Below are positions 16,792 through 41,595 of a DNA stretch of 41,595 bases, piece after piece. Source of the stretch: a virus (Duplodnaviria > Heunggongvirae > Uroviricota > Caudoviricetes); the IMG/VR virus record IMGVR_UViG_2541047952_000001, one strand, 5' to 3'. The notes beneath the pieces are model-generated. The model made no database searches and was not told the DNA's origin. It was given only the letters and a program-made list of their open reading frames with translations. Positions within the stretch are counted from its first letter, which is position 1. Each line of letters starts with the position of its first letter. A program made the translations under genes and the position numbers.

Positions 16792-17441
16792 GCCGCCATC
16801 TCCCTGACCAGTTTTTCTGCCTGCTGGCGAACCTGCGCCAGAAAGGCCTCACCACATGCCTCAAGTTCATCGCGCCCGATGTAGCTGATTGCCGGTCCCT
16901 TCCAGGTCTTGTCGAAAACAGCAATAGCACCAGCGAAGAAAGCGCCTGTCGGCACCTGCTTCTCATCCTTCGGGATAAACCAGGCAGGCAGTTCAAAACC
17001 AATACGCCCGCGAATAAAAGCAATATGATCTGCATCTTCCGGCCACCACACTTCGCTGGTGGCAGCTTTGATCAGGAAAACATAGCGCCCGCCTTTATCA
17101 CGCATGGCACTGGCATGCTTCATGATGTAACGCATGCCGGTAATGTATTGCCCCTCATGCTGACTGGCGCGGCTGTATGGGGGATTACCAAAGGCAGCAC
17201 CTTTAAGCTCCGCAAGGCGTTCTGACCAGTCATGCGCCAGCGCGTTGTCTTCCGCCGTGTAATACGCAGCACATTTGGCGTTATCACCGTCAGTGAACAG
17301 ATCCAGAACAAACGGGCCAAACAGGGTGTTAATTCCCCAGAAAATGTTGTCCGGCGTGCGCCACTGATCGCCCACTTCCTTCAGTTCATGGGCTGGTTTG
17401 TTCCGCAGTTCCGCCAGCGCCTGGCAATATTTATTACTCAT
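16788..17441 (-). CDS. phage DNA N6-adenine methyltransferase (Dam-like)
   Basis: Contains FGNPPY. Preferred start MSNKYCQ at 17441 is translationally coupled (TAATG) to the upstream gene; the ORF track begins at 17474. Confidence 0.75.
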   Translation of the reverse strand: MSNKYCQALAELRNKPAHELKEVGDQWRTPDNIFWGINTLFGPFVLDLFTDGDNAKCAAYYTAEDNALAHDWSERLAELKGAAFGNPPYSRASQHEGQYITGMRYIMKHASAMRDKGGRYVFLIKAATSEVWWPEDADHIAFIRGRIGFELPAWFIPKDEKQVPTGAFFAGAIAVFDKTWKGPAISYIGRDELEACGEAFLAQVRQQAEKLVREMAA

Positions 17442-17935
17442 TAAGCCCCCACGTAATTCCCTGAGAGATACCACTCTTCACCTGATGCAGCCTGCTTACT
17501 GCTTTTCCGTAAACACCGTTCACGACGCGCCAGAAAATTGTTTCGTTCTGGCTGGGAGTGGCTTTCACGGAATGCCGCCATCCACACGGTTGCAGCACGA
17601 CGGTATAAGCCCCTGGACTCCAGTTCTTCAGCCTGGCGGGTCAGGCACAAAATCACCCGGGGATCGTTAGTGCCGACATAGAAATTGCGCACAGGTCTGG
17701 TTTCTCGAACTGGTTGTGGTTCCGGTTCCTGCGCTCTCTCAGTCAGGCGCGGGAAATGTCTGCGTGTATCTCCTTCACAACGGTGAGCCACACGCCCACT
17801 CTGACGTAACTTGCTTGCTGACTGCAGAACGCGCTGCCGTGAGTAACCTGCAAAAGCATCCGCAATGTCTCCGGAAGTACATCCCGGATGGGCTTCAATG
17901 AATTTCTGAACTTCATTCAAAAGACTCATTATCAC
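17441..17935 (-). CDS. putative regulatory protein (PerC/ANR-like C-terminal region)
   Basis: 164-aa ORF overlapping the replication gene stop by 4 nt; C-terminal LESRGLYRRAATVWMAAF is reminiscent of PerC-family activators. Weak assignment. Confidence 0.4.
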   Translation of the reverse strand: MIMSLLNEVQKFIEAHPGCTSGDIADAFAGYSRQRVLQSASKLRQSGRVAHRCEGDTRRHFPRLTERAQEPEPQPVRETRPVRNFYVGTNDPRVILCLTRQAEELESRGLYRRAATVWMAAFRESHSQPERNNFLARRERCLRKSSKQAASGEEWYLSGNYVGA

Positions 17936-26006: not shown

Positions 26007-27046
26007 AGGCTGAAGCATGGCGGGTCAGCAAACTTGGTGAAATACCTGATATAACGTTCGAGGAAGCGTGTGTCAGGTGGCTTGAAGAGAAAGCACATAA
26101 AAAATCACTGGACGATGACAAAAGCCGGATCGGATTCTGGCTTCAACATTTCGCAGGAATGCAACTAAGAGACATTACTGAATCAAAAATTTATTCAGCA
26201 ATGCAGAAAATGACGAACCGGCGTCATGAGGAAAACTGGAAACTCAGGGCAGAAGCATGCAGAAAAAAAGGGAAACCTGTTCCAGAATACACGCCAAAAC
26301 CAGCGTCCGTTGCAACGAAGGCTACGCATCTTTCATTTATAAAGGCCCTACTAAGAGCCGCAGAGCGTGAATGGAAAATGCTGGATAAGGCACCAATTAT
26401 TAAAGTGCCTCAACCAAAGAATAAACGGATCCGCTGGCTGGAGCCCCATGAAGCACAAAGGCTGATTGATGAATGTCCGGAGCCATTAAAGTCTGTTGTT
26501 GAATTTGCACTGGCAACAGGCTTAAGACGCTCGAACATCATCAACCTTGAATGGCAACAAATAGATATGCAGCGCCGGGTGGCATGGATAAACCCGGAAG
26601 AGAGTAAATCAAACCGCGCAATTGGCGTTGCGCTGAATGATACTGCATGTCGCGTATTGAAAAAACAAATCGGGAATCATCACCGTTGGGTATTTGTGTA
26701 CAAGGAAAGCTGTACCAAACCAGACGGAACGAAAGCGCCAACAGTAAGGAAGATGCGGTATGACGCAAACACAGCCTGGAAAGCGGCGCTGAGACGGGCT
26801 GGTATTGATGATTTCAGATTTCACGACTTGAGACACACCTGGGCAAGTTGGCTGGTTCAAGCCGGAGTCCCGTTGTCAGTTTTACAGGAAATGGGAGGCT
26901 GGGAGTCTATCGAAATGGTTCGTCGATATGCTCACCTTGCACCTAATCACCTTACCGAACACGCACGGCAAATAGACTCGATCCTGAACCCATCGGTCCC
27001 AAATTTGTCCCAGTCAAAAAATAAGGAAGGTACTAATGATGTGTAA
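25883..27046 (+). CDS. int: tyrosine integrase (prophage, thrW-targeting)
   Basis: 387-aa [25 protein letters not shown]... with C-terminal catalytic-region motifs ([10 protein letters not shown]...RRYAHL); stops 15 nt before the thrW 3' fragment. Confidence 0.9.
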
Positions 27047-27109: not shown

Positions 27110-27293
27110 ATGTTAATGCATTTTTAACTACTTGAGCAATCAATCAAAACAACATACTTTATATTATAAAACACCAAGTTATAGCAATAAACCCGTTGAT
27201 TGAAATTAACAAAAGTTGATGTTTATTCCCTCCATTTACTTACACCAGCAGTTACATTATTGTAAGACAGCAATTCTCAACTGGAGCCGAAAA

Positions 27294-28619
27294 ATGGCGC
27301 TTTCAAGACAAAAATTTACCTTCGAAAGACTTCGCAGATTCACCTTACCGGAAGGGAAAAAACAAACTTTTCTTTGGGATGCAGATGTAACAACCCTGGC
27401 ATGCCGAGCAACTAGCGGAGCAAAAGCCTTTGTATTCCAAAGCGTATATGCGGGGAAAACCCTTCGCATGACTATTGGCAACATTAACGACTGGAAGATT
27501 GATGATGCGAGAGCCGAGGCAAGACGGTTACAAACATTGATCGATACAGGGATAGATCCACGAATTGCTAAGGCTGTAAAAATCGCAGAAGCAGAATCCC
27601 TGCAGGCAGAATCACGTAAAACAAAAGTGACTTTCTCCGTCGCCTGGGAAGACTATCTTCAAGAATTGAGAACCGGTATCAGTGCAAAAACTAAACGCCC
27701 ATATTCTACTCGATACATTGCCGATCACATTAACTTGTCCAGTCGTGGAGGCGAAAGTAAAAAAAGAGGCCAAGGCCCGACTTCGGCTGGACCATTGGCT
27801 AGTTTGCTCAACCTGCCGTTATCGGAGCTAACCCCAGATTACATAGCAGCGTGGCTGAGTACAGAAAGGCAAAATAGACCTACCGTCACTGCTCACGCTT
27901 ATCGCCTACTACGTGCTTTCATCAAATGGAGTAATTATCAGAAAAAATATCAAGGGATCATTCCTGGCGATCTGGCACAAGATTACAACGTAAGAAAAAT
28001 GGTTCCCGTGTCAGCGAGTAAAGCTGATGATTGCCTGCAAAAGGAACAACTAAAAAGCTGGTTTAGTGCCGTGCGTAGCCTCAATAATCCTATTGCATCG
28101 GCCTATCTCCAAGTACTTTTGCTCACTGGTGCTCGGCGTGAAGAAATTGCGTCGCTTCGCTGGTCAGACGTAGATTTCAAATGGTCAAGCATGCGAATTA
28201 AAGACAAGATCGAAGGTGAACGTATCATCCCTCTCACTCCTTATGTTTCTGAATTGTTAAATGTACTAGCGCAATCCCCAAATTCTGACGTAAATAAGGA
28301 GGGTTGGGTTTTCAGAAGTAACAGTAAAAGTGGCAAAATTATTGAGCCGCGTTCAGCGCACAACAGAGCGTTAGTGCTGGCTGAGTTACCACATATCAGC
28401 CTTCACGGTTTACGTCGTAGTTTTGGTACTTTGGCCGAGTGGGTTGAAGTTCCCACTGGTATTGTTGCTCAAATTATGGGACACAAACCCAGCGCTCTTG
28501 CCGAAAAACACTATCGCCGTCGTCCGTTAGATCTGTTACGAAAATGGCACGAGAAAATTGAGACATGGATCTTAAATGAAGCAGGTATTACCATAAAAAA
28601 CAACGTTGATATGCGTTGA
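27294..28619 (+). CDS. P4-type tyrosine integrase of a second integrative element (CP4-6 IntF-like)
   Basis: Preferred start MALSRQKFTFERLRRF at 27294 with GGAG RBS (track: 27216); C-terminal HGLRRSFGTLAEW...KHYRR catalytic-type motifs. Confidence 0.85.
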   Translation: MALSRQKFTFERLRRFTLPEGKKQTFLWDADVTTLACRATSGAKAFVFQSVYAGKTLRMTIGNINDWKIDDARAEARRLQTLIDTGIDPRIAKAVKIAEAESLQAESRKTKVTFSVAWEDYLQELRTGISAKTKRPYSTRYIADHINLSSRGGESKKRGQGPTSAGPLASLLNLPLSELTPDYIAAWLSTERQNRPTVTAHAYRLLRAFIKWSNYQKKYQGIIPGDLAQDYNVRKMVPVSASKADDCLQKEQLKSWFSAVRSLNNPIASAYLQVLLLTGARREEIASLRWSDVDFKWSSMRIKDKIEGERIIPLTPYVSELLNVLAQSPNSDVNKEGWVFRSNSKSGKIIEPRSAHNRALVLAELPHISLHGLRRSFGTLAEWVEVPTGIVAQIMGHKPSALAEKHYRRRPLDLLRKWHEKIETWILNEAGITIKNNVDMR

Positions 28620-30396: not shown

Positions 30397-31095
30397 ATGA
30401 GAGGTAAAATACTACTTTACCAGTTAAAGTATCGCTGGCAATCACTCTCTATTTTTGGTTGTTTTTTATGCAAAATGACATTATTCAGGTATCAAAAAAT
30501 AATTTATGACACCGGAGTGCATCAGATGCGTTCATTTTTTTACACCATATGCAGTAGCGAACAGCAAGAAAGCATTACAGATCATCACTCACTTGCTGAG
30601 ATATGCCAAAAATTTAATATTCTACCTGAACATGTTGTGATCGAGCAGGTAGATATTAAAGAGGTTGTTTCAGAGCAACGTTTACTCAGACAATTGATTC
30701 ATCATGAAATGAACCGGCAGGACACGCTTGTCATTCCAGATCTAAGCTGTCTTGGCAGAACTGTGGAGGACTTACAGAATATTTTATTTTTTTGCCTTCA
30801 AAAAGAAATGTTTATCTACAGCTACCATCCAGCTTCAAGGATAGAGCCTTCTGCTGAAAGTTGCTTGTCTTTTTTGATTGCTCGTCAGGATACGATTGAC
30901 ATTCACAATCTGAAATCAACTAAAAGCCGATATCGACATGTTAAGAAGAAATTAGGACGAAAGGAGGGAAGCAAATACCGACGTGATATCACAATACTTA
31001 AGAAAGGTGGATTTACTCAGGCTGAGATTGCAAAGAAATTGAGTATCAGTTTATCGACTGTGAAGCGGCACTGGAATAACGGAATCATCGGTTAA
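30397..31095 (+). CDS. degenerate serine-recombinase-like DNA-binding protein (YagL-like)
   Basis: Resolvase-like layout: YTICSSEQQ resembles YARVSTxQQ but lacks the Arg; DTLVIPDLSCLGR resembles D.LVV.KLDRLGR; C-terminal HTH GFTQAEIAKKLSISLSTVKRHW. Possible internal start at 30526. Confidence 0.55.
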   Translation: MRGKILLYQLKYRWQSLSIFGCFLCKMTLFRYQKIIYDTGVHQMRSFFYTICSSEQQESITDHHSLAEICQKFNILPEHVVIEQVDIKEVVSEQRLLRQLIHHEMNRQDTLVIPDLSCLGRTVEDLQNILFFCLQKEMFIYSYHPASRIEPSAESCLSFLIARQDTIDIHNLKSTKSRYRHVKKKLGRKEGSKYRRDITILKKGGFTQAEIAKKLSISLSTVKRHWNNGIIG

Positions 31096-31199
31096 TTCCA
31101 GAAGCTAATTGCAGAGTAACTTTTTAACAGCCATCACAGGCTGGGGCTACCTTCGTCTCAAATTTAGATGTTGGATAGGTATTATATAATGGCATTGTG

Positions 31200-31358
31200 T
31201 ACTCTTACTACCTGTATTCACCAGTAAGAGTAGTAATCAGATCAGTATGTCCGTACTAAAATCTGATACCAGTATATACCGACAACAGTGACCAGGAATA
31301 GCCCTGCCTGTATGGCATCCCTGTACGGTCTGCTATAGACCGTAGGACCAAATACAGG
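31200..31358. repeat. cluster of nested inverted repeats upstream of the yagK-like gene
   Basis: TACTCTTACT / AGTAAGAGTA (31200..31209 and 31223..31232), TACGGTCT / AGACCGTA (31324..31331 and 31337..31344) and CCTGTAT / ATACAGG (31307..31313 and 31352..31358); consensus TATAAT at 31185..31190. Confidence 0.35.
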
Positions 31359-31366
31359 TATATATT

Positions 31367-31696
31367 ATGAAAACATATCAAGGTACTCATGGAGTACATA
31401 TCCTCGAATATCAGAGTAAGATTAATAAATTATTATGTTATTTGACTAACCGGTATCCTAGGTTAATTGCTGTACGTGTCGATCTCCACTATCCCAAAAT
31501 AGTTGATAACGGTGACAATATCTGTTGCTTCCCTAACCTGGAACCTGGGGTGATATCCCGGATGCGTGAATCCCTCAGAGCTAAGCTGGAGGCTGACCGT
31601 ACCCGTAAGGTGCGTGAGGATAAACGCATTTACCGTTGCCCTTTATTTATTATATGGGCGAAAGAGTATTCTGAATCAGGTAAATGCCACTATCAC
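31367..31696 (+). pseudogene. yagK-like gene truncated by IS1
   Basis: Reading frame runs from ATG 31367 straight into the IS1 left inverted repeat; the last 8 codons of the track ORF (GDAANLLI) are IS1 sequence. Confidence 0.5.
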
Positions 31697-31751
31697 GGTG
31701 ATGCTGCCAACTTACTGATTTAGTGTATGATGGTGTTTTTGAGGTGCTCCA

Positions 31752-32027
31752 GTGGCTTCTGTTTCTATCAGCTGTCCCTCCTGTTCAGCTACTGACGGGG
31801 TGGTGCGTAACGGCAAAAGCACCGCCGGACATCAGCGCTATCTCTGCTCTCACTGCCGTAAAACATGGCAACTGCAGTTCACTTACACCGCTTCTCAACC
31901 CGGTACGCACCAGAAAATCATTGATATGGCCATGAATGGCGTTGGATGCCGGGCAACAGCCCGCATTATGGGCGTTGGCCTCAACACGATTTTCCGCCAT
32001 TTAAAAAACTCAGGCCGCAGTCGGTAA
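31752..32027 (+). CDS. insA: IS1 InsA
   Basis: 91-aa product [43 protein letters not shown]... Confidence 0.9.
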
Positions 32028-32449
32028 CCTCGCGCATACAGCCGGGCAGTGACGTCATCGTCTGCGCGGAAATGGACGAACAGTGGGGATACGTCGGGGC
32101 TAAATCGCGCCAGCGCTGGCTGTTTTACGCGTATGACAGGCTCCGGAAGACGGTTGTTGCGCACGTATTCGGTGAACGCACTATGGCGACGCTGGGGCGT
32201 CTTATGAGCCTGCTGTCACCCTTTGACGTGGTGATATGGATGACGGATGGCTGGCCGCTGTATGAATCCCGCCTGAAGGGAAAGCTGCACGTAATCAGCA
32301 AGCGATATACGCAGCGAATTGAGCGGCATAACCTGAATCTGAGGCAGCACCTGGCACGGCTGGGACGGAAGTCGCTGTCGTTCTCAAAATCGGTGGAGCT
32401 GCATGACAAAGTCATCGGGCATTATCTGAACATAAAACACTATCAATAA
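31946..32449 (+). CDS. insB: IS1 InsB (expressed as InsAB' transposase by -1 frameshift)
   Basis: 167-aa ORF in the -1 frame relative to insA, overlapping its 3' end. Confidence 0.85.
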
Positions 32450-32531
32450 GTTAGAGTCATTACCGAAGTGATCGTATAACCAAGGGAGTAACCCGAGTAA
32501 CTGAGCGCCGAAATATTACGACTGGACGCCA

Positions 32532-32708
32532 GATGAATTTACGTCTGACGGGACTTGATGATGATGCTTTGTCGATGCTAGTTGAAAAGGTTCAGGAAAA
32601 ACTTCCAAATAAAAATGTAACACGCTCGCGCGTTCTGCGAGCAGCTTGCTATCTTCAAGACGATAAACTGCTTCAAAAGCTTGCACAGTCACTACTTGAA
32701 AACACGTA
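32532..32708 (+). CDS. small hypothetical protein (58 aa)
   Basis: Hand-translated MNLRLTGLDDDALSMLVEKVQEKLPNKNVTRSRVLRAACYLQDDKLLQKLAQSLLENT; helical and charged, followed by a TATATA-rich tract. Preferred over the antisense 80-aa track ORF 32516..32758. Confidence 0.3.
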
Positions 32709-33046
32709 ATGTATATATATTTATATATACAAAATTTAGTGTGAAATGCTCTTGCCAAATTTGTTATACTGGATTGGTGGTATATGCTTTTGTATATACA
32801 TTTTTAGTATTTTCATTAATTAAATTAATTTGTTAGATTCCTGTTCGAGAGTTTTGGATGGTCGTAGTATATTTCGCTTAAGCGGCCATTCCAGATTGAC
32901 TTCCTGACCTTGCAAGCCAGAGTTTCCTTCGCTAGAGGCTGATGCTTTTTTACAGGACTAGGGCAGGGGGGGGATGAAAAACCCTCTCCCCTAAGTGCTG
33001 TAGCAGTCACAACTGGAGGTGAGGAAACCCGAAAATAATTTGTTAG

Positions 33047-34318
33047 TCATAACCGGGCTATGGGCAAATCAGTCCACCTGGTTGTATAAGCGGGAGAAAG
33101 GATCTCCCGCTTCATCTGCCATTCAGGCGCAATTCCCCGCCCCGCAAACCAGACTTTCCCCAGGCCGGAATGGTTGATGCCGTCGAGCACCTTCATCAGC
33201 TTATCACTGTGTGCTCTGGGCTGTACGTCATCAAACAGATTCAGCTGAGAGACGCCGGTCGGGGAGAAATCGTTCAGCATGATGCCGGCTTTGGCATAGC
33301 GATGGCCGGAGACCCAGATCCTGTCCAGCGCTCTGACTGCAGCAGTAATAATGTCCCGGGTGTCCCGCGTGGGTGTCATCAGTTTCTCTGTTGCCAGATT
33401 GCCGTAATAGGGCTCGTTGATGGCGAACGGCGAAGTTTTAATGAAAGCCGAGATATGCCGGCAGTACTGGTGCTCTCCGCGCAGCTTCTCCGCAGCGCGT
33501 TCTGCATGCTGACAGATGGCCTGACGCATGGCTTCATACGTTGTGACGCGTTCTCCGAAAGAACGGCTGCAGACAATCTGCTGTTTTGGCGGGGGTGCTT
33601 CTTCCAGCAAAATGCACGGTTCTCCGTTCAGTTCACGAACCGTTCTCTCCAGTACCACGTTGAAGTTTTTCCGGATGAAGGTTGGATTCGCGCGCGCCAA
33701 CTGCAGCGCAGTGGTGATACCCATTGTCCCCAGCGTCTTCGAAATTCTCCGGCCCACACCCCAGATTTCTTCCACCGGCTGCAGTGAGAGCAGTTTCTCC
33801 GTCCGGTGGGGATTGCCCGGGGTCAGGGCCAGAACGCCGCCAAATTGTGGCCATTCTTTTGACGCCCATTGAGCGCTTTTAGCCAGCGTTTTCGTGGGGC
33901 CCATGCCGACACCGATGGTGAGTCCCGTACCGTTACCAACATGGACACGCAGCTGCCGACCAAAGTCTTCAAAGTCAATACAGCGGTTGATGCCCCGGAT
34001 ATCGAGGAACATCTCGTCAATGGAATACTGTTCCACGCGCGGCGCCAGCTCTTCCAGATGAGTCATCACCCTGGCGGACATCGAGGCGTACAGCTCATAG
34101 TTGCTGGAGAACACGTGCAGCTTCTCGGGAAACTGTGCGTCCTTCAGCTGGAACCACGGTACGCCCATTTTGATGCCAAGTAGTTTTGCTTCTTTTGAGC
34201 GGGCGATAACGCAGCCGTCGTTGTTGCTCAGCACGACAACCGGTTTACCCCGCAGGTCAGGGCGAAACACCTTCTCGCAGCTGTCATAGAACGAATTGAC
34301 GTCGGCCAGGGCAAACAT
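33047..34318 (-). CDS. umuC: Y-family translesion DNA polymerase subunit UmuC (UmuC/MucB family)
   Basis: 423-aa [48 protein letters not shown]... with clear UmuC-type N-terminal and internal motifs. Confidence 0.9.
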
Positions 34319-34395
34319 CAGTCCGCTCCACGCGTCTTATGGATAAACGCGGTCACCACACCAAAAATCTGCAGCGTCTCCGGGTCAGGGTGAAG
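34318..34395 (-). pseudogene. umuD 3' remnant (truncated; no S24 peptidase domain, no LexA box seen)
   Basis: Only the last roughly 25 codons (...[29 protein letters not shown]) resemble the UmuD C-terminus; the stop overlaps the umuC ATG (TGATG). Upstream sequence is unrelated and carries a REP-like element. Confidence 0.55.
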
Positions 34396-34573
34396 GGCAG
34401 GGTATCGCAAGGTGTGGCGACCTGCCAGCGGGAAAGGTAGCAGCATTAATAGAGTGGAAAGAGAAGACCTGGCAGACAGGGAGTCAAATTGCTGACAACG
34501 GTTATACTGTGCGGCACTTCGCCTGAACAGGCTATGGTATAAAAATAACGCACTGATATTAATATACTTTAAA

Positions 34574-34600
34574 GCCGGATAATGCGAAGCCGCATCCGGC
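34574..34600. repeat. REP-like palindromic unit
   Basis: GCCGGATaatgcgaagccgcATCCGGC, a typical enterobacterial extragenic palindrome form. Confidence 0.5.
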
Positions 34601-34675
34601 AAAACGGCATATAAAAGAGTAAAATCAGACTTACCATCAGTCTGACGCCCCCGGCAGACAGGGGCGAAATCATGC

Positions 34676-35608
34676 TCAGGGTACCGGCGTCACCAGCGGC
34701 AAACCGGCGAACCATGCCTCAACGTTTTCCAGTACCAGACGCGACATTTCCCGACGCGTTTCCCAGGTTGCGCTGGCCATATGTGGCGTGATCACCACGT
34801 TGTCGCGCTTCTGCAACGATACGGGAACGTGCGGCTCGTGGGCAAAGACATCCAGCGCAGCACCGGCGATGGTGTTATTTTCCAGTGCGGCTATCAGCGC
34901 GTCCTCATCCACCACGCTGCCGCGCGAGATATTGATCAAAATGCCCTCCGCGCCCAGCGCCTCCAGCACAGATTGATTGATCAGCGCTTTGGTTCCTTCA
35001 CCGCCCGGCGCGCAAACCATCAGAAAATCGCTGTTTTGCGCCAGGGCCTGTAGATCGGGAATGTAATTCCATATCAGTGCATTATTTTTCTGGCGGTCGC
35101 TGTAAGAAATCTCCATATCGAACGCTGCCGCCCGTCTGGCTATGGCCTGCCCGATGCGTCCCATGCCAAGGATACCCAGACGTTTGCCGGAAACTTTACG
35201 CGTCCACTGAAAACCGCTGTTCTGCCAGCCAGCCTGTTCAATAAATTTCTGCGCAGCGACAATTTTGCGTGAGACGGCAAGCATGAGCCCCATCGCCAGA
35301 TCGGCAACATCGTCGGTTAATACGCCTGGCGTATGAGTAACGTCTACTCCGGCATCACGCGCGGCGGCGACATCCACTCCGTCATACCCCACACCAAACA
35401 CGGCAATCAACTTCAGTGCGGGTAGTGTATTAATAAATTCACGCGTGACTACTGCCTCACCGTTGGTAATCACCACGGCGATCTCGCTGGCAACGGCTTG
35501 CAATTCTGTATCAGACAGAAGAGCGAGATCGTATAAATCGTAACGCTGGCTAAGCTCCCAGGTCAGCGCATCCGGTAAATAGGCTTGTTTGAGTACTTTC
35601 TGTTTCAT
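34676..35608 (-). CDS. D-isomer-specific 2-hydroxyacid dehydrogenase (NAD-binding)
   Basis: Preferred start MKQKVLKQAYLPDAL at 35608 (track: 35722); Rossmann GxGxxG motif GILGMGRIGQAIARR and conserved catalytic-region residues. Confidence 0.8.
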   Translation of the reverse strand: MKQKVLKQAYLPDALTWELSQRYDLYDLALLSDTELQAVASEIAVVITNGEAVVTREFINTLPALKLIAVFGVGYDGVDVAAARDAGVDVTHTPGVLTDDVADLAMGLMLAVSRKIVAAQKFIEQAGWQNSGFQWTRKVSGKRLGILGMGRIGQAIARRAAAFDMEISYSDRQKNNALIWNYIPDLQALAQNSDFLMVCAPGGEGTKALINQSVLEALGAEGILINISRGSVVDEDALIAALENNTIAGAALDVFAHEPHVPVSLQKRDNVVITPHMASATWETRREMSRLVLENVEAWFAGLPLVTPVP

Positions 35609-35621
35609 AGCGTTTCCAATA

Positions 35622-36932
35622 TTAAGAGAGACGAGAGGCAGGATCTTCAGATACCCGCAATGGCGCAGGACGCGAAACCAGGATGCCAATGATTCCCCCG
35701 ATGATGAGCGCCACAGCAACAATCAGCAGCCCGTAGTGATAGCTGTTCGTCGCATCTTTAATTTTGCCAAGCAGCGGTGGTAAACCGAGGCCCACGAAAT
35801 TTGCGACAGTATTGATAAATGCAATAGAAGCCGCCGCTGCGACGCCCGCCAGTTTCTCGGTCGTTACCGCCCAGAAGATTGGCGTGAGGGCAAAGTTAAA
35901 GCCCACGGTCAGTACGAGCAGGACATAGGCCACCAGCAGATTGCCGGAATAAATCGCGATCGCCAGCGACAGTCCGGAGAGGATCAGCGGCAGACCTAAG
36001 TGCCATGAACGTTCGTTAGTGGTATCTGAATGTCGACCGTTGATATACATAAATAAGCATGCTGCGATAAACGGCACGGCGGAAAGCAGGCCGATCACAA
36101 TATTGCTCTGATCGCTGGCCATACTTTTAATGATTAGCGGTAAAAAGAGCGTGATCCCGATCGAACCAAATGCCTGTAAAAACCACACCAGACTTAATAA
36201 CAATACGGTTTTATTTTTCAGGGCACCGATCCAGCTATGGTTGGCCCCGACTTCCACGCTCGCGTTATCACGCGCCAACTGCGCTTTTAGCCAGCCTTTT
36301 TGTTCGGTCGAAAGCCAGGCCGCATGGTCGGGGGATTGCGGCAAACGCCACAGAACCAGTACGCCAAGTACAATAGCCGGAATACCTTCAATGGCGAATA
36401 GCCAGCGCCAGCCTGCGATATCCGCGATACCATGCATATTCAGGATGGAACCGGAAATCGGCAATCCAATAATGGAGGCCATTACCGATCCCATATAAAA
36501 GAATGACATGGCACGCGCGCGGTTGCTTTTCGGAAACCAGCAGGAAATATAATAAATGATGCCCGGCGTAAACCCGGCTTCTGCCATGCCGAGTAAGAAT
36601 CGCATAACATAGAGTTGCGTGGGTGTGTGTACCAGCGACATCCCGGCACTGACAATGCCCCAGGTGATCATAATCCTGGCAATCCACAACCGGGCCCCTA
36701 CTTTCGTCATAATAACGTTGCTGGGAATTTCGAAAATAATATAGGAAATATAAAACATCCCAACACCGAGACCATACATACTGGCGCTCAGCCCTAAGTC
36801 AGCGTTCATTTGCAGCGCAGCAATAGAGATGTTGGTTTTATCCAGATTAGCAACAAAATAGCAGATAATAATAAACGGAATTATCTTCGCATTAAGCTGC
36901 CGTAATGTTGAAGAATACAGATCGGTATTCAT
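35622..36932 (-). CDS. MFS transporter (sugar-acid permease; occupies the dgoT position)
   Basis: 12-TM-type hydrophobic profile; preferred start MNTDLYSS at 36932 with GAGGA RBS; directly downstream of the dgoD-like gene. Confidence 0.8.
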   Translation of the reverse strand: MNTDLYSSTLRQLNAKIIPFIIICYFVANLDKTNISIAALQMNADLGLSASMYGLGVGMFYISYIIFEIPSNVIMTKVGARLWIARIMITWGIVSAGMSLVHTPTQLYVMRFLLGMAEAGFTPGIIYYISCWFPKSNRARAMSFFYMGSVMASIIGLPISGSILNMHGIADIAGWRWLFAIEGIPAIVLGVLVLWRLPQSPDHAAWLSTEQKGWLKAQLARDNASVEVGANHSWIGALKNKTVLLLSLVWFLQAFGSIGITLFLPLIIKSMASDQSNIVIGLLSAVPFIAACLFMYINGRHSDTTNERSWHLGLPLILSGLSLAIAIYSGNLLVAYVLLVLTVGFNFALTPIFWAVTTEKLAGVAAAASIAFINTVANFVGLGLPPLLGKIKDATNSYHYGLLIVAVALIIGGIIGILVSRPAPLRVSEDPASRLS

Positions 36933-37030
36933 AACAGAATCCTCACTCTGCTGCCTCATGATAAAGGGATACCCTCCGCCATCAGGCAGCCGATCGTTAT
37001 TGATTATTTTAACTATTTAAAAGAACGCTA

Positions 37031-38179
37031 TTACCACTCAGCAACCGTACCGTCTGCGTGACGCCACAACGGGTTACGCCAATCCTGGAAATGTTTACTC
37101 AGTTCATGAACCTTCTCTTCATCAATTTCCACACCCAGGCCGGGTTTCATCAGCGGTTTGAAGAAGCCGCCTTCCATACTGAAGTCTTCTTTGTTTTTCA
37201 CGAAGTCGAGCAGTTCGGCACCTTTGTTGTAGTGAATGCCCATGCTTTGCTCCTGGAATACCGCATTGTGCGACACAAAGTCGACGTGCAGACAGGCGGC
37301 CAGCGCAATCGGCCCGAGCGGGCAGTGTGGTGCCAGCGCTACATCGTAAGCCTCTGCCATACCAGCGATTTTATAGCATTCGGTAATCCCACCCGCGTGC
37401 GAGAGATCCGGTTGCAGAATTGCCACGCCACCCGCTTCCAGCACCCGTTTGAACTCAAAGCGAGTGAACATTCGCTCACCGGCCGCAATGGGAATATGCG
37501 TTTGTGCGGCCAGACGCGGATAATATTCTGCCTGTTCGGCTAATACTGGCTCCTCAATAAATAGCGGGCGATATTGTTCCAGCTCTTTAATTAACACTTT
37601 GGCCATCGGTGCGCTGACACGGCCATGGAAATCGAGGCCGAACTCAATTTCATTACCAAAGGCTTCGCGAATTTGCGCCGCGGTATTTACCGCCGCATCT
37701 ACTTTCCGTGAATCATCAATAATGCCTAATTCTTCACAGCCGTTTAATTTAAAGGTATCAAAGCCAATTTTACGTAGTGTGGAAATACCGGCGATAGCTT
37801 CCGCCGGACGATCACCGCCGACCCAGCTATAGGCTTTGATTTTGTCGCGCACCAGGCCGCCCATCAGTTGCCATACCGGCGCGTTATGCACTTTTCCTTT
37901 GATATCCCAGAGCGCCTGGTCAATACCGGCAATAGCGCTCATCAGAATCGGGCCACCGCGATAAAAACCAGCGCGGTACATCACTTGCCACAAGTCGTTA
38001 ATGCGTGCGGGATCCTGACCAATCAAATACTCGCCCAGCTCGTGTACTGCGGCTTCCACGGTGCGCGCGCGCCCTTCAATCACGGGTTCGCCCCATCCCA
38101 CCACGCCTTCGTCAGTCTCTATTTTGAGGAACATCCAGCGCGGGGGTAAACGATATGTGGTGAGTTTGGTAATTTTCAT
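37031..38179 (-). CDS. dgoD: D-galactonate dehydratase (enolase superfamily)
   Basis: 382-aa [52 protein letters not shown]..., characteristic DgoD sequence and length. Confidence 0.9.
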
Positions 38180-38793
38180 TTCACTGCCTCTCGATACGCT
38201 TTCACAAATGCGGCAGCCTGCTGTGCCGTGCGCTCAACGGGCTGCCCGGCGCGATAGAGATCGCTGCCCAGCCCGGCGCCAAGACAGCCGGCATCAATCC
38301 ACTGTTTTAAGTTCTCCGGCGTAACCCCGCCAACGGCGAATACCGGGATCTCAGGTGGCAATACGGCCTTCAGAGCCTTGATATAATCCGGGCCAAACGC
38401 CGAAGACGGGAAAATCTTCAGCGACTGCGCGTCCGCGTCAATGGCATCAAAAGCCTCCGTGGCCGTGGCGCAGCCGGGGCAGACGGTCATACCGTGTTCC
38501 ACCGCCCGGCGGATCAGTTCCGGTTGAATGTTTGGCGTCACCATTAGCGTACAGCCCATAGCGGCAAGTTGATCAACCTGCTCCAGCTTCAGCACAGTGC
38601 CTGCTCCAATCAGTGCTTTATCGCCAAACGCTTTCACCATCGCCGGAATGGTTTTTTCCCACTCCGGGGAGTTCAGCGGGATCTCAACGGCTTCAAATCC
38701 CGCTTCAATGAGCGCTGCCACATGGGCATGTGCCTCATCGGGTTTGATGCCGCGAAGGATGGCGATAAGCGGAAGTTTATTTTGCCACTGCAT
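38176..38793 (-). CDS. dgoA: 2-dehydro-3-deoxy-6-phosphogalactonate aldolase
   Basis: 205-aa KDPG/KHG-aldolase-family ORF in operon position between the kinase and dehydratase genes. Confidence 0.85.
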
Positions 38794-39655
38794 AAGCGAT
38801 GCTCCTTATTCCTACCTGAAATGCGTCGTCACCGCTGAGCGCCTGACTTTGACGCCCGAATAGCGCAAATGCTCGCTGATAGCGTGCGGTTAGTGACGGA
38901 CTGGCGACGAGGGTGACGGTCTGCCACACCGGGATATACTCGCCCATGCTGGCAACTTCGCTGCCAATCAGCAGACCGGAGAGAAATTCACTGACCTGTT
39001 CGCGAGGCCGCACGCCCAGTACATATGAGGCACGGACTTCGAACAACCGGGGCAAGATCGCGGGGGATTGCAGGCCGCATTCCAGCCCGGCGTTAAAGGC
39101 CTCCGGCGAATCGGTTTGTTGCGGCAGGCCCGTGCCGACCAGCGTGTGCGTCAGCAGTACGTGATGAAGCTCGCCGGTCATCACCGTGCGAAAATCTTCT
39201 ACCCGATCGCCATCGACCCGAACCCATTTACAGTGCGTGCCAGGCATTACATACAAGGCGGAAGGCCTCAGTGTATGTGCGCCGACCAGTTGTGTTTCTT
39301 CACCGCGCATGACGTTATGGTTATCGGCATTATTGATGCACAGACCCGGCACAATCCAGACGTTGTCTTTCACGCGGGTCAGATGCCTGCCGATATCGTT
39401 AAGGCGTGCAGGACAGGGAAGATAAGGGACGTTTACCCAGCCCGCGTTACTTCCTACCATTCCCGCCATTACAACCGGCGTATTTTCCAGCATCCAGCCT
39501 TCGGTGATCTCCGACAGCACCGCCTCAAACGTGCGGCCATTAAGCCGGGTGATCCCGGCCTCCGATTTCCGGCTCTCCAGACACTTTTCACTCTGGTAAA
39601 GCCAGGCACGAAGATTGGTCGACCCCCAATCGATAGCAATGTAGCGTGATGTCAT
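38777..39655 (-). CDS. dgoK: 2-dehydro-3-deoxygalactonokinase
   Basis: 292-aa ORF MTSRYIAIDWGSTNLRAWL... (sugar-kinase-type N-terminal motif) between the regulator and aldolase genes. Confidence 0.85.
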   Translation of the reverse strand: MTSRYIAIDWGSTNLRAWLYQSEKCLESRKSEAGITRLNGRTFEAVLSEITEGWMLENTPVVMAGMVGSNAGWVNVPYLPCPARLNDIGRHLTRVKDNVWIVPGLCINNADNHNVMRGEETQLVGAHTLRPSALYVMPGTHCKWVRVDGDRVEDFRTVMTGELHHVLLTHTLVGTGLPQQTDSPEAFNAGLECGLQSPAILPRLFEVRASYVLGVRPREQVSEFLSGLLIGSEVASMGEYIPVWQTVTLVASPSLTARYQRAFALFGRQSQALSGDDAFQVGIRSIAYAVAK

Positions 39656-40341
39656 GTGATGTCTTTTAACCTTGTGGTTGAGCTGGCGATCATCGTCAGC
39701 GCCGCCTGTTCTGCTGCGTTACTGTCCTGATGCCGTATCGCATCAAACAGCGCCTTATGTTCCTGAAGCGTTTTCGGCATGTTGGCCTCGTCGCCCATCC
39801 AGGTACGCTCAAATACCGCACGCTGTAGCGAACTTATTGCCCCGCTTAACTGCTGTAATACCGGATTATGCACGGCGTTCAGCACCGCTTCGTGATAACG
39901 GATGTCCGCTTCGTTGAATGCATACCGATCCTGGTTATTGGCGATCATGTCGTTTAGGGCTGCCTCAATCTGCGCCAGTTCGCTGGAGGTGGCGCGCTCT
40001 GCCGCCCAGCGAGCGATCGCTGGCTCCACCAGGTTACGCACTTCACTCATCGCGCTAATCAGTCGCGGATCATAGTCATTCTCCAGCACCCATTGCAGCA
40101 CCTCGGTGTCGAGGTAGTTCCACTGGTTGCGGGCGGCAACAAACGCGCCGCGATAACGCTTCATCTCAATCAACCGCTTTGCCGTCAGGGAGCGGAACAC
40201 CTCTCTGATAATATTGCGCGAAGTTTCAAACTCGTCGCATAAATCGGCCTCTGAGGGCAGCGCCGCACCAGGCACATATTTGCCGCTGACAATCTGCCGC
40301 CCGAGGGTAAAGGTAATGCGGTCTGTTTTGGTAATGGTCAT
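39652..40341 (-). CDS. dgoR: GntR/FadR-family transcriptional regulator
   Basis: 229-aa ORF with N-terminal GntR-type HTH (EADLCDEFETSRNIIREVFRSL) and a FadR-type C-terminal domain; first gene of the dgo-like operon. Confidence 0.85.
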   Translation of the reverse strand: MTITKTDRITFTLGRQIVSGKYVPGAALPSEADLCDEFETSRNIIREVFRSLTAKRLIEMKRYRGAFVAARNQWNYLDTEVLQWVLENDYDPRLISAMSEVRNLVEPAIARWAAERATSSELAQIEAALNDMIANNQDRYAFNEADIRYHEAVLNAVHNPVLQQLSGAISSLQRAVFERTWMGDEANMPKTLQEHKALFDAIRHQDSNAAEQAALTMIASSTTRLKDIT

Positions 40342-40908
40342 TGAAAGTCCTTAATGCGTTTTCGCTACCATTACTTTATCCCTGTTGTCGTAAAAATCCC
40401 CAGCATTGAAGTTCAAAATTGCAGAGTATTCAGCGTTTCATGGGTTAATAGTAGTACGATTAATATATTTGGTACTACAACTTGGATCACAAAAACAACA
40501 ATCGATAAAAAAATTCGTTAAACCATTTTAAGCTCCGGCTTCCTGTTTCCACTTCACGTAGACTTCACTTCCGCCAAATAACGTTGCGCCATGGCAACTT
40601 AATCCGGTGAAAAAATGGAGCATTTCGGCGTAGCAATCATCGGGTTGGCTCGGCCGCTTGCAGGTAAGAAGCAGGTGATTGCGCTCAATAAGAAGCGGCA
40701 GCCCGCTGGAAGGGATCAGCTATGCGCTGGACAGCGCGGAGCGATTAGGCGATGTGCTGATAGTAGTAAAGTCTCACGCTGGCCCGCAACACGCGCGTTA
40801 CGGCGGAAGGAGGCTACTGAGGAAAATTTGCCTGGTAAATCTGCTGACACAGCCACGACTCCGCCGGGCAATAATGCGTAGCCGCATCAGCAATATTACG
40901 GTGCGAGC

Positions 40909-41145
40909 TTAACTCAGCGCAAACTTCTCAATGGCATATGCCACGCCATCTTCAAGGTTGGATTTGGTGACAAAGTCGGCAACGTCTTTAGCCGATGGGA
41001 TGGCATTTTCCATTGCGACACTCATTCCGGCATATTCAATCATCGCGATGTCGTTTTCCTGATCGCCGAGGGTCATCACCTCTTCCGGTTTGATGCCCAG
41101 TTTGCCTGCCAGCTTCGGCTTATCTGTGGGTAGCGGCTGTCCCAT
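40909..41145 (-). pseudogene. 3' fragment of a Cof-type HAD sugar phosphatase gene (yidA-like)
   Basis: ...KLGIKPEEVMTLGDQENDIAMIEYAGMSVAMENAIPSAKDVADFVTKSNLEDGVAYAIEKFALS matches the HAD C-terminal region only; the N-terminal two-thirds is missing. Confidence 0.55.
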
Positions 41146-41312
41146 ATGCTGGCGAATGTGTCCAGCGCCTGTAATGCTGCCTCTTCCGTGGGTGCCTGAT
41201 AGATGGCCTTCAAATCACGGGTGACTGCCTTGTAGTCCTTCCAGGACACGAACCGCAGGCTGTTGCGCACCATGTGGACGATACACAGCTGTATCCGGGC
41301 CTGCGGATACAC
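41076..41312 (-). pseudogene. internal fragment of an IS256-family (mutator-type) transposase gene
   Basis: RIQLCIVHMVRNSLRFVSWKDYKAVTRDLKAIYQAPTEEAALQALDTFASIWDSRYPQI resembles the central region of IS256-family transposases; truncated at both ends. Confidence 0.5.
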
Positions 41313-41351
41313 TGCATTAATGGCATCCGGAAAGCCTTTCAGGCCATCAAC

Positions 41352-41379
41352 TGAACCGCCCCGGAAAACCGGGGCGGTT
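41352..41379. other. perfect 12-bp stem hairpin
   Basis: GAACCGCCCCGG-aaaa-CCGGGGCGGTTC between the transposase remnant and the second IS1 copy. Confidence 0.3.
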
Positions 41380-41500
41380 CACCCTGCGCTGGAAATTACC
41401 ATCACCGTGTCCCGGTCCGCATGAACTGGCATCCGAAGTGGTGGAGGCCGGACAGCCTGCGCCCGGATCCATTATGTCGCGCTGGGTGGCGGGCGCCGGG

Positions 41501-41595
41501 GGTGATGCTGCCAACTTACTGATTTAGTGTATGATGGTGTTTTTGAGGTGCTCCAGTGGCTTCTGTTTCTATCAGCTGTCCCTCCTGTTCAGCTA
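41501..41595 (+). mobile_element. IS1, second copy (left end only; continues past the right window edge)
   Basis: The last 95 bp of the window are identical to the first 95 bp of the IS1 at 31697, in the same orientation. Confidence 0.85.

Follow-up and report, generated by a model that had tools for sequence, protein, structure and literature searches.

How did a 9-kb mosaic of plasmid and chromosomal genes come to lie between two direct copies of the insertion sequence (IS) IS1 in an Escherichia coli chromosome? The question is raised by the virus record IMGVR_UViG_2541047952_000001 (IMG/VR; Caudoviricetes), a stretch of 41,595 nucleotides that we refer to as the window, and in particular by positions 31,697 to 41,595, where two IS1 copies (IS1 #1 and IS1 #2) enclose a umuC gene with a umuD stub and a dgo cluster. 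A first-pass annotation, made from the sequence alone, had proposed that this structure could be mobilised as a composite IS1 element. We favour another route, with a rough probability of 0.6: a piece of plasmid would have reached the cryptic prophage CP4-6 by homologous recombination between IS1 copies, together with cointegration or an adjacent deletion, and not by composite transposition.

Positions 31000-41595 of the window are identical (100%, full length) to the chromosome of E. coli Res13-Sevr-PER07-33 (NZ_CP062811.1), an isolate from pig faeces in Quebec. We read this chromosome for 12 kb on either side, as a stretch called L001 in which the window coordinate equals the L001 coordinate plus 18,999, and this made the second IS1 and the DNA past it readable. 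To the left of IS1 #1 the genes run intF-yagN-ykgV-yagM-yagL-yagK', and to the right of IS1 #2 they run afuB'-afuC(fbpC)-mmuM-mmuP-IS5. Both flanks are collinear with K-12 CP4-6 at 99.9% identity, and the locus is CP4-6. The features at the two edges of the mosaic are the following.

31367..31696, plus strand: yagK', the first 110 of 208 codons, cut by IS1 #1; identity to K-12 is 99.9% and extends to K-12 position 292,619; annotated as partial.
31697..32464, plus strand: IS1 #1, complete at 768 bp and IS1B-like, with insA at 31752-32027 and insB at 31946-32449.
41501..41595, plus strand: IS1 #2, of which the first 95 nt lie in the window; site and orientation are those of K-12 IS1B at afuB'.

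That two direct IS1 copies bracket the interval, as first annotated, is borne out by a 95-nt exact direct repeat (31697-31791 and 41501-41595) and by the source genome, where IS1 #2, which runs out of the window end, is a complete 768-bp copy (L001 22502-23269). The two copies enclose 9,036 bp and differ from each other at two positions only, 704 and 757. By the standard of the family, IS1 is a 768-bp element with imperfect terminal inverted repeats of about 23 bp and with insA and insB read through a -1 frameshift at an A-run. The left inverted repeat is GGTGATGCTGCCAACTTACTGAT in both copies, and the right one is canonical in IS1 #2 and carries one G>A change in IS1 #1. InsA (91 aa) and InsB (167 aa) are intact, and the frameshift motif TTAAAAAAC is present. 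In both copies InsA carries L81F, as in K-12 IS1B and IS1C, a type described as transposing at extremely low frequency and nearly immobile (PMC12428005, which also gives the locations of IS1B and IS1C in K-12).

The first-pass annotation had suggested comparing the junctions for target duplications and aligning the flanks to related genomes, and both comparisons were informative. IS1 #1 is flanked by CACTATCAC on the left and GAAGTGATC on the right, and IS1 #2 by GGCGCCGGG on the left and GGGCCAAAT on the right. No 9-bp target duplication is present at IS1 #1 or at IS1 #2, and none surrounds the whole IS1-cargo-IS1 unit (CACTATCAC versus GGGCCAAAT). The missing duplications show secondary rearrangement and are not evidence that the elements are other than IS1. 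Indeed, yagK, 99.9% identical to its K-12 counterpart and matching Pfam YagK_YfjJ_C over positions 2-75 of 170, ends after 330 of 627 nt, in agreement with the earlier view that the left edge is a rearrangement or deletion junction. The letters read CACTATCAC|GGTGATGCTG at the yagK'|IS1 junction, GAGTCATTACC|GAAGTGATCG where IS1 #1 meets a remnant of parA, and GGCGCCGGG|GGTGATGCTG at the cargo|IS1 junction (41500/41501). Neither the yagK'|IS1 nor the IS1|parA' junction was found in any other of the 5,426 complete E. coli genomes, in 72,556 plasmids or in a metagenome scan, and no second copy of the unit with its two outer junctions turned up among the same genomes and plasmids.

The right outer junction is of another kind. 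Here IS1 #2 meets afuB' (…CATTACC|GGGCCAAATCG…) base for base as IS1B does in K-12, and the alignment to related genomes showed this junction to be old: it is present in 451 of the 5,426 genomes. In K-12, IS1B and IS1C are direct repeats around IS30'/ISX-yagB-yagA-yagEFGH-xynR-argF. K-12 positions 279,931-292,618, which comprise IS30'/ISX, yagB to argF, IS1C, yagJ and the 3' 297 nt of yagK, are absent from the window, so that the site lacks 12.7 kb of K-12-type DNA and holds IS1 #1 with the 9,036 bp instead. The K-12-type DNA adjoins the IS1B copy at afuB' in 311 genomes, which makes the arrangement with the argF segment beside IS1B the probable ancestral state; the argF unit between two IS1 copies is also found in one non-K-12 human isolate. 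We note that these 311, counted among the 451, have K-12-type DNA in the 600 bp on the left side of this IS1, and that the left flank of IS1B is variable in the other approximately 140, some of which may be laboratory deletion strains.

What lies between the two IS1 copies begins and ends with plasmid DNA. The features at the two ends of the cargo are the following.

32465..33046, plus strand: plasmid partition remnant, consisting of the last 7 nt of parA, a 58-aa open reading frame (ORF; 32533-32709) and an AT-rich spacer.
33047..34318, minus strand: umuC, intact, 423 codons, its product 65% identical to K-12 UmuC.
34318..34404, minus strand: umuD' stub, the last 28 codons and the stop, overlapping the umuC start.
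34405..34659, no strand assigned: spacer with a REP-like (repetitive extragenic palindromic) palindrome and a terminator-like hairpin, joining plasmid DNA to a chromosomal block.
41091..41351, minus strand: internal fragment of an IS256/Mutator-family transposase without IS ends (Pfam Transposase_mut, positions 245-316 of 379).
41351..41500, plus strand: the 5' 150 nt of a 112-aa leading-region ORF, cut by IS1 #2 and intact in strain ECC-1470.

Positions 32465-34404, from the parA remnant through the 58-aa ORF and umuC to the 3' end of umuD, are 97% identical to a Klebsiella oxytoca IncFII plasmid (NZ_CP144732.1) that carries parA, the 58-aa ORF and umuC, together with a full-length umuD and a typical LexA box (AACTGTATTTATATACAGTAA) upstream. 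The part at 32465-33046, 97-98% identical to this plasmid, was found in no other genome of the 5,426. At the opposite end, the 112-aa ORF is one that, in the leading region of Klebsiella conjugative plasmids, comes immediately after psiB-psiA, and its gene is found on 208 plasmids, 200 of them conjugative. It has no match in Pfam or NCBIfam and was placed by context; within the 12 kb of the K. oxytoca plasmid that was examined, it is not next to umuD. As both ends are plasmid leading-region DNA, the cargo derives from an F-like plasmid. Judged from its parts, it is a fragment of an F-like leading region into which a chromosomal block resembling that of Superficieibacter had been inserted earlier.

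Two observations on these ends stand apart from the question of origin. The 58-aa ORF, which likewise has no Pfam or NCBIfam match, stands between the 7-nt parA remnant upstream and, downstream, an AT-rich stretch containing TATATA-type repeats (32533-32860 in all); the pair may represent the small partner protein and the centromere-like site of a plasmid partition system whose ATPase is gone. The 112-aa ORF is labelled 'theronine dehydrogenase' in its copies (window 41351-41500; 17395-17733 in the ECC-1470 stretch, L003; 6994-7317 in stretch L066), and this label appears to be a propagated annotation error.

The IS1 copies themselves bear on how this fragment entered CP4-6. We compared their alleles with those of three plasmid copies at the cargo junction and two chromosomal IS1B copies (K-12 and strain 504239). 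At position 127 IS1 #2 carries C, as do all three plasmid copies, where both chromosomal IS1B copies have T, and at position 262 it shares A with two of the three plasmid copies, where the chromosomal copies have C or T. At positions 704 and 757 it carries A and G, like both IS1B copies, versus T and A in the three plasmid copies; IS1 #1 has the plasmid-type 704T and 757A. IS1 #2 looks like a hybrid with a plasmid-type left part and an IS1B-type right part, a pattern that is supportive and not decisive: one crossover between positions 263 and 703, joining a plasmid IS1 and the resident IS1B, yields exactly IS1 #2.

On the reading we favour, the cargo would have been put together beforehand, when the Superficieibacter-like block and the IS256-family scrap took the place of the 5' part of umuD with its LexA box and of the plasmid genes that follow. 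A plasmid with this cargo and an IS1 at its right end would then have recombined, IS1 with IS1, at the resident IS1B next to afuB', leaving the hybrid IS1 #2. The second step could have taken either of two forms: the left IS1 of the plasmid would have cointegrated into yagK, followed by recombination between IS1 and IS1B, or the plasmid would have integrated at IS1B and an IS1 adjacent deletion would have extended into yagK. Both forms would have removed the plasmid backbone together with the argF segment, IS1C, yagJ and the 3' half of yagK, without leaving a target duplication.

Several points weigh against this reading. Searches of PLSDB, of the complete E. coli genomes and of the metagenome scan yielded no plasmid that carries the IS1|parA' left junction, so that the immediate donor is unobserved. 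Mosaicism is heavy among the IS1 copies at equivalent junctions, and their alleles are only partly informative on the direction of transfer. The case for a hybrid IS1 #2 is built on 3-4 sites, with K-12 and 504239 as proxies for the ancestral IS1B, and gene conversion could mimic the pattern. A transfer from plasmid to chromosome is the favoured, unproven direction for the shared cargo|IS1 junction. Finally, both forms of the second step give the same product, and the order and type of the two steps are not separable from it.

Other copies of the mosaic help to weigh the alternatives. Positions 32958-41500 are 99.9% identical in the chromosomes of E. coli ECC-1470 (bovine mastitis) and CFSAN051542 (cheese); the stretch shared with these two amounts to 8,544 bp and is shorter in all other copies, and only the window keeps 32465-32957. 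In both strains the cargo lies in a CP4-6-like island, between yagK and GTPase/WYL genes, and the flanking island backbone is only 95.6-97.2% identical to that of the window. With the cargo at 99.9-100%, this difference indicates a recent transfer that was independent of the island backbone. In these strains the cargo is bounded on the left by an IS5 end remnant of 89 bp at CTAG. On the right they alone keep 209 bp past 41500, which complete the 112-aa ORF and are followed by an inverted IS1. Ahead of the cargo, both strains carry genes for a BRO-N protein, a GIY-YIG nuclease, a DEAD/DEAH helicase and a 2.8-kb S-adenosylmethionine (SAM)-dependent DNA methyltransferase (1656-9000 in L003 for ECC-1470, and at the same coordinates in L004 for CFSAN051542), a module that looks defence-like from its gene content.

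Positions 33124-41500, with the identical cargo|IS1 junction, are found on IncFIA/FIB plasmids of E. coli from cattle farms; in these, umuC is cut by ISSen4. The junction at 41500/41501 is the same on the IncFIA/FIB plasmids pRHB31-C01_3, RHB31-E3-C04 and pAH21 and on one metagenome contig. Plasmid pAH21 (NZ_CP081712.1, stretch L062, 6001-12206) has the order IS1-dgoD-dgoA-dgoK-dgoR-scraps-IS1 with the same right junction. This version, from an IncFIA-type plasmid from Alberta, lies beside sopAB, lacks umuC, the dehydrogenase and the transporter gene, and shows no 9-bp duplication either. Metagenome contigs OLXV01001838 and OLOT01000426 carry the cargo at 100% identity with umuC cut at 34278 and 34191, so that, with 33124, three umuC cut points are seen in other copies. 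On OLOT01000426.1 (stretch L068, 3686-6867) umuC is cut to 128 nt and adjoins genes for a 742-aa and a 283-aa protein, another independent context; by eye, the 742-aa protein could be a fusion of E1/ThiF-like and JAB-like parts.

Across these copies dgoDAKR is present wherever the sequence extends that far (L068 ends within dgoD). The umuD stub junction is identical wherever it is retained, as are the cbrA', yidA' and IS256' scraps wherever the right end is retained. The outer junctions differ by copy, being formed by an IS5 remnant, by ISSen4, by IS1 at other points or by an inverted IS1. As the stub junction and the internal scraps are shared with plasmids and other chromosomes, they are older than this locus and its IS1 bracket.

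The alternative that survives best, which we regard as rather unlikely, would place the mosaic in a chromosome from the start. The cargo would have been resident in a CP4-6-type island like that of ECC-1470 and would have entered this strain by recombination of island DNA; adjacent deletions by the resident IS1B and a second IS1 would have formed both junctions, and the plasmids would have acquired the cargo|IS1 junction later. ECC-1470 and CFSAN051542 do hold the cargo in the same kind of island, and their right end, reaching 209 bp beyond the insertion point of IS1 #2, corresponds to the state before IS1 insertion. An IS1 adjacent deletion leaves no duplication, matching what is observed, and the mosaicism among IS1 copies weakens the argument from the hybrid IS1 #2. 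However, the flanks of the window are K-12-type at 99.9% and the ECC-1470 backbone is at only 97%, yet the cargo differs by less than 0.1%. ECC-1470 also lacks 32465-32957, which the window has in common with the Klebsiella plasmid, the alleles of IS1 #2 change from plasmid type to IS1B type, and the argF segment lies beside this IS1B in the 311 genomes.

Mis-joining of contigs across the 768-bp IS1 repeats would be conceivable in view of the multicopy nature of IS1 and of outer junctions found in this assembly only. We reject it as very improbable: the record is a closed chromosome, the IS1 copies differ at two positions and were resolved individually, and the two flanks are true CP4-6 neighbours with correct order and orientation, an outcome not to be had from contigs joined at random.

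IS1 composite transposons of the Tn9 kind consist of a passenger segment between direct IS1 copies, and the present structure resembles them in its two complete direct IS1 copies with intact outer inverted repeats, as well as in the shorter IS1-bracketed dgo version on pAH21. Unlike a Tn9-type element that had moved into CP4-6 as one 10.6-kb unit, it has no 9-bp duplication around the unit, its right outer junction is the pre-existing IS1B|afuB' junction of a resident IS1, 12.7 kb of K-12-type DNA is gone from the site, the unit is unique and was found at no second target site among the genomes and plasmids searched, and both copies are of the L81F type reported as nearly immobile (PMC12428005), so that composite transposition is effectively excluded and the mobility proposed at first is unsupported.

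The central part of the cargo, its chromosomal block, contains the following features.

34676..35608, minus strand: D-isomer-specific 2-hydroxyacid dehydrogenase (GhrB-like), 310 aa (Pfam 2-Hacid_dh_C, 5e-52).
35622..36932, minus strand: major facilitator superfamily (MFS) transporter, 436 aa, not a DgoT orthologue.
37031..38179, minus strand: dgoD (NCBIfam galactonate dehydratase, 686 bits).
38176..38793, minus strand: dgoA (NCBIfam aldolase, 323 bits).
38777..39655, minus strand: dgoK.
39652..40341, minus strand: dgoR.
40440..40500, minus strand: dgo promoter region with DgoR-type inverted repeats (TTGTAGTAC ... GTACTAC), from a by-eye alignment to the region upstream of K-12 dgoR.
40615..40909, plus strand: internally deleted cbrA-like remnant that keeps residues 1-36 and 281-353 (tblastn with the S. 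electus cbrA-like protein); annotated as partial.
40909..41112, minus strand: 3' fragment of a yidA-like HAD phosphatase gene, last 67 codons (Pfam Hydrolase_3, positions 194-255 of 255).

This block had been described as a chromosomal-type dgoRKAD cluster. It is indeed present, intact and part of a chromosomal block; that it is of E. coli's own type does not hold, since the cluster is 78% identical in nucleotide sequence to the E. coli operon versus 87% to the Superficieibacter electus chromosome. DgoD and DgoA score above the NCBIfam cutoffs. Full-length amino acid identities to K-12 are 91% for DgoD, 82% for DgoA, 68% for DgoK and 88% for DgoR, and those to S. electus are 98%, 97%, 84% and 96%, respectively. 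The MFS transporter is 22% identical to K-12 DgoT and 98% to its S. electus counterpart, and scores 287 against TIGR00893, under the cutoff of 395; the 2-hydroxyacid dehydrogenase is 93% identical to its Superficieibacter homologue.

From 34660 the block is collinear with the chromosome of S. electus (87% identity in nucleotides) as far as 41113, where collinearity stops. The order in S. electus is yidA, a convergent cbrA-like gene, dgoR-K-A-D, the MFS transporter and the 2-hydroxyacid dehydrogenase; block proteins are 84-98% identical to those of S. electus, and Franconibacter, Siccibacter and Pseudescherichia share this synteny. With a best match of only 87%, the true donor species of the block lies outside the collection searched. 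The yidA-like fragment, 78% identical to residues 204-270 of K-12 YidA, abuts the IS256-family transposase fragment, as had been noticed at first. Upstream of dgoR, the TTGTAGTAC...GTACTAC motifs stand at the position equivalent to K-12 IR1/IR2 (the IR1 sequence being that given in PMC12288454) and are candidate DgoR operators. As all genes are intact and the putative operator region is conserved, the block is probably a working, DgoR-controlled sugar-acid module.

The E. coli dgoRKADT operon has the same dgoR-K-A-D order with overlapping genes, and its DgoR-type inverted repeats upstream have candidate counterparts in the block. In contrast to it, the block diverges in nucleotide sequence as given above, its MFS protein is unrelated to DgoT, and it has an extra 2-hydroxyacid dehydrogenase gene.

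The umuC gene appears to have fared differently. It is intact, as first annotated: it matches the NCBIfam UmuC model NF002955 over 1-422 of 422 (799.7 bits), and its product retains the catalytic residues D6, D101 and E102 and the QLNLF clamp motif. The umuD stub is a 3' remnant without S24 domain, as had been seen; its length is 28 codons and not about 25. It corresponds to Y114-D141 of the 141-aa UmuD, lacks the S24 catalytic and cleavage regions and a start codon, and its ORF gave no match in a Pfam search. The absence of a recognisable LexA box was upheld as well. No CTGT-N8-ACAG site occurs in the IS1-bounded interval, and the sole CTG-N10-CAG near umuC, at 34642, is a GC-rich hairpin. 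Over the whole window CTG-N10-CAG occurs 24 times, where shuffled sequences give an expectation of 9.4 and none of 100 shuffles reaches 24, an excess that is probably an effect of the use of CTG and CAG codons and not a sign of LexA sites. A promoter scan upstream of umuC gave chance-level results (3 found versus 2.7 expected). A terminator-like site (34646-34624) lies between the dgo genes and umuC, in the spacer 34405-34659, which was found only in copies of this mosaic.

DNA polymerase V requires UmuD'2 together with UmuC. The umuC start overlaps the umuD stop, so that umuC translation is normally coupled to that of umuD. We regard umuC here as a stranded passenger, given that a UmuD partner gene, a LexA box and an upstream translated gene for coupling are all absent. 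A less likely possibility is that the orphan UmuC is maintained through an ability to act with the UmuD' of the host. The intactness of umuC is uninformative on selection here, because the copies of the mosaic are 99.9% identical, and the umuC remnant has no demonstrated significance.

The left part of the window is occupied by another prophage, which fills positions 1-27046 and continues past the window start. Its genes include a myovirus-type tail, an HK97-type capsid, a P27-type small terminase and lambda-like lysis and antitermination functions. Its integrase gene (25928-27046) stands back-to-back with intF, the CP4-6 integrase gene (27219-28619), an arrangement that suggests tandem integration at the end of CP4-6.

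A close known relative of the whole structure is the K-12 segment between IS1B and IS1C. It lies in the same island with its right IS1 at the same afuB' junction, and there too two direct IS1B-type copies surround about 10 kb of foreign metabolic genes with no target duplication at either copy. It differs in that its cargo is yagB to argF, whereas here it is plasmid umuC and the dgo block, and in that its left IS1 lies between ykgS and yagJ, whereas here it lies inside yagK, with yagJ and the 3' part of yagK lost. A literature search under 'Tn2901', the name of the argF IS1 transposon, gave no match in the library searched.

In IS-bounded 'pseudo-compound' structures and in Hfr-type plasmid integration by IS homology, hybrid IS copies arise and duplications are absent. 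The locus studied here is alike in that a plasmid segment has been fixed in a chromosome through IS recombination with cointegrate or deletion steps, and differs in that the element is IS1, the target is a cryptic prophage and the donor plasmid is unobserved. The structure is an ordinary IS-bounded, plasmid-derived mosaic, fixed by IS recombination and deletion, and an instance of a well-known kind.

These findings leave current understanding unchanged. They provide a natural example of how IS1 copies let plasmids leave metabolic cargo in the chromosome, here in the slot that argF occupies in K-12, and they illustrate that missing target duplications together with a shared, old junction are a signature of recombination and deletion and not of transposition. 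It is possible, if doubtful at present, that the IS1B-anchored interval of CP4-6-type islands is a recurrent landing pad for swaps, by IS homology, of IS1-plasmid cargo, and that a plasmid-borne sugar-acid module, composed of dgoRKAD, a transporter other than DgoT and a 2-hydroxyacid dehydrogenase, is spreading by this route in livestock-associated E. coli because of an advantage in gut nutrition. Since D-galactonate metabolism is implicated in gut colonisation and virulence of enteric bacteria (as reported in PMC12288454), a second, mobile dgo-like cluster in E. coli of farm animals may be of ecological interest.

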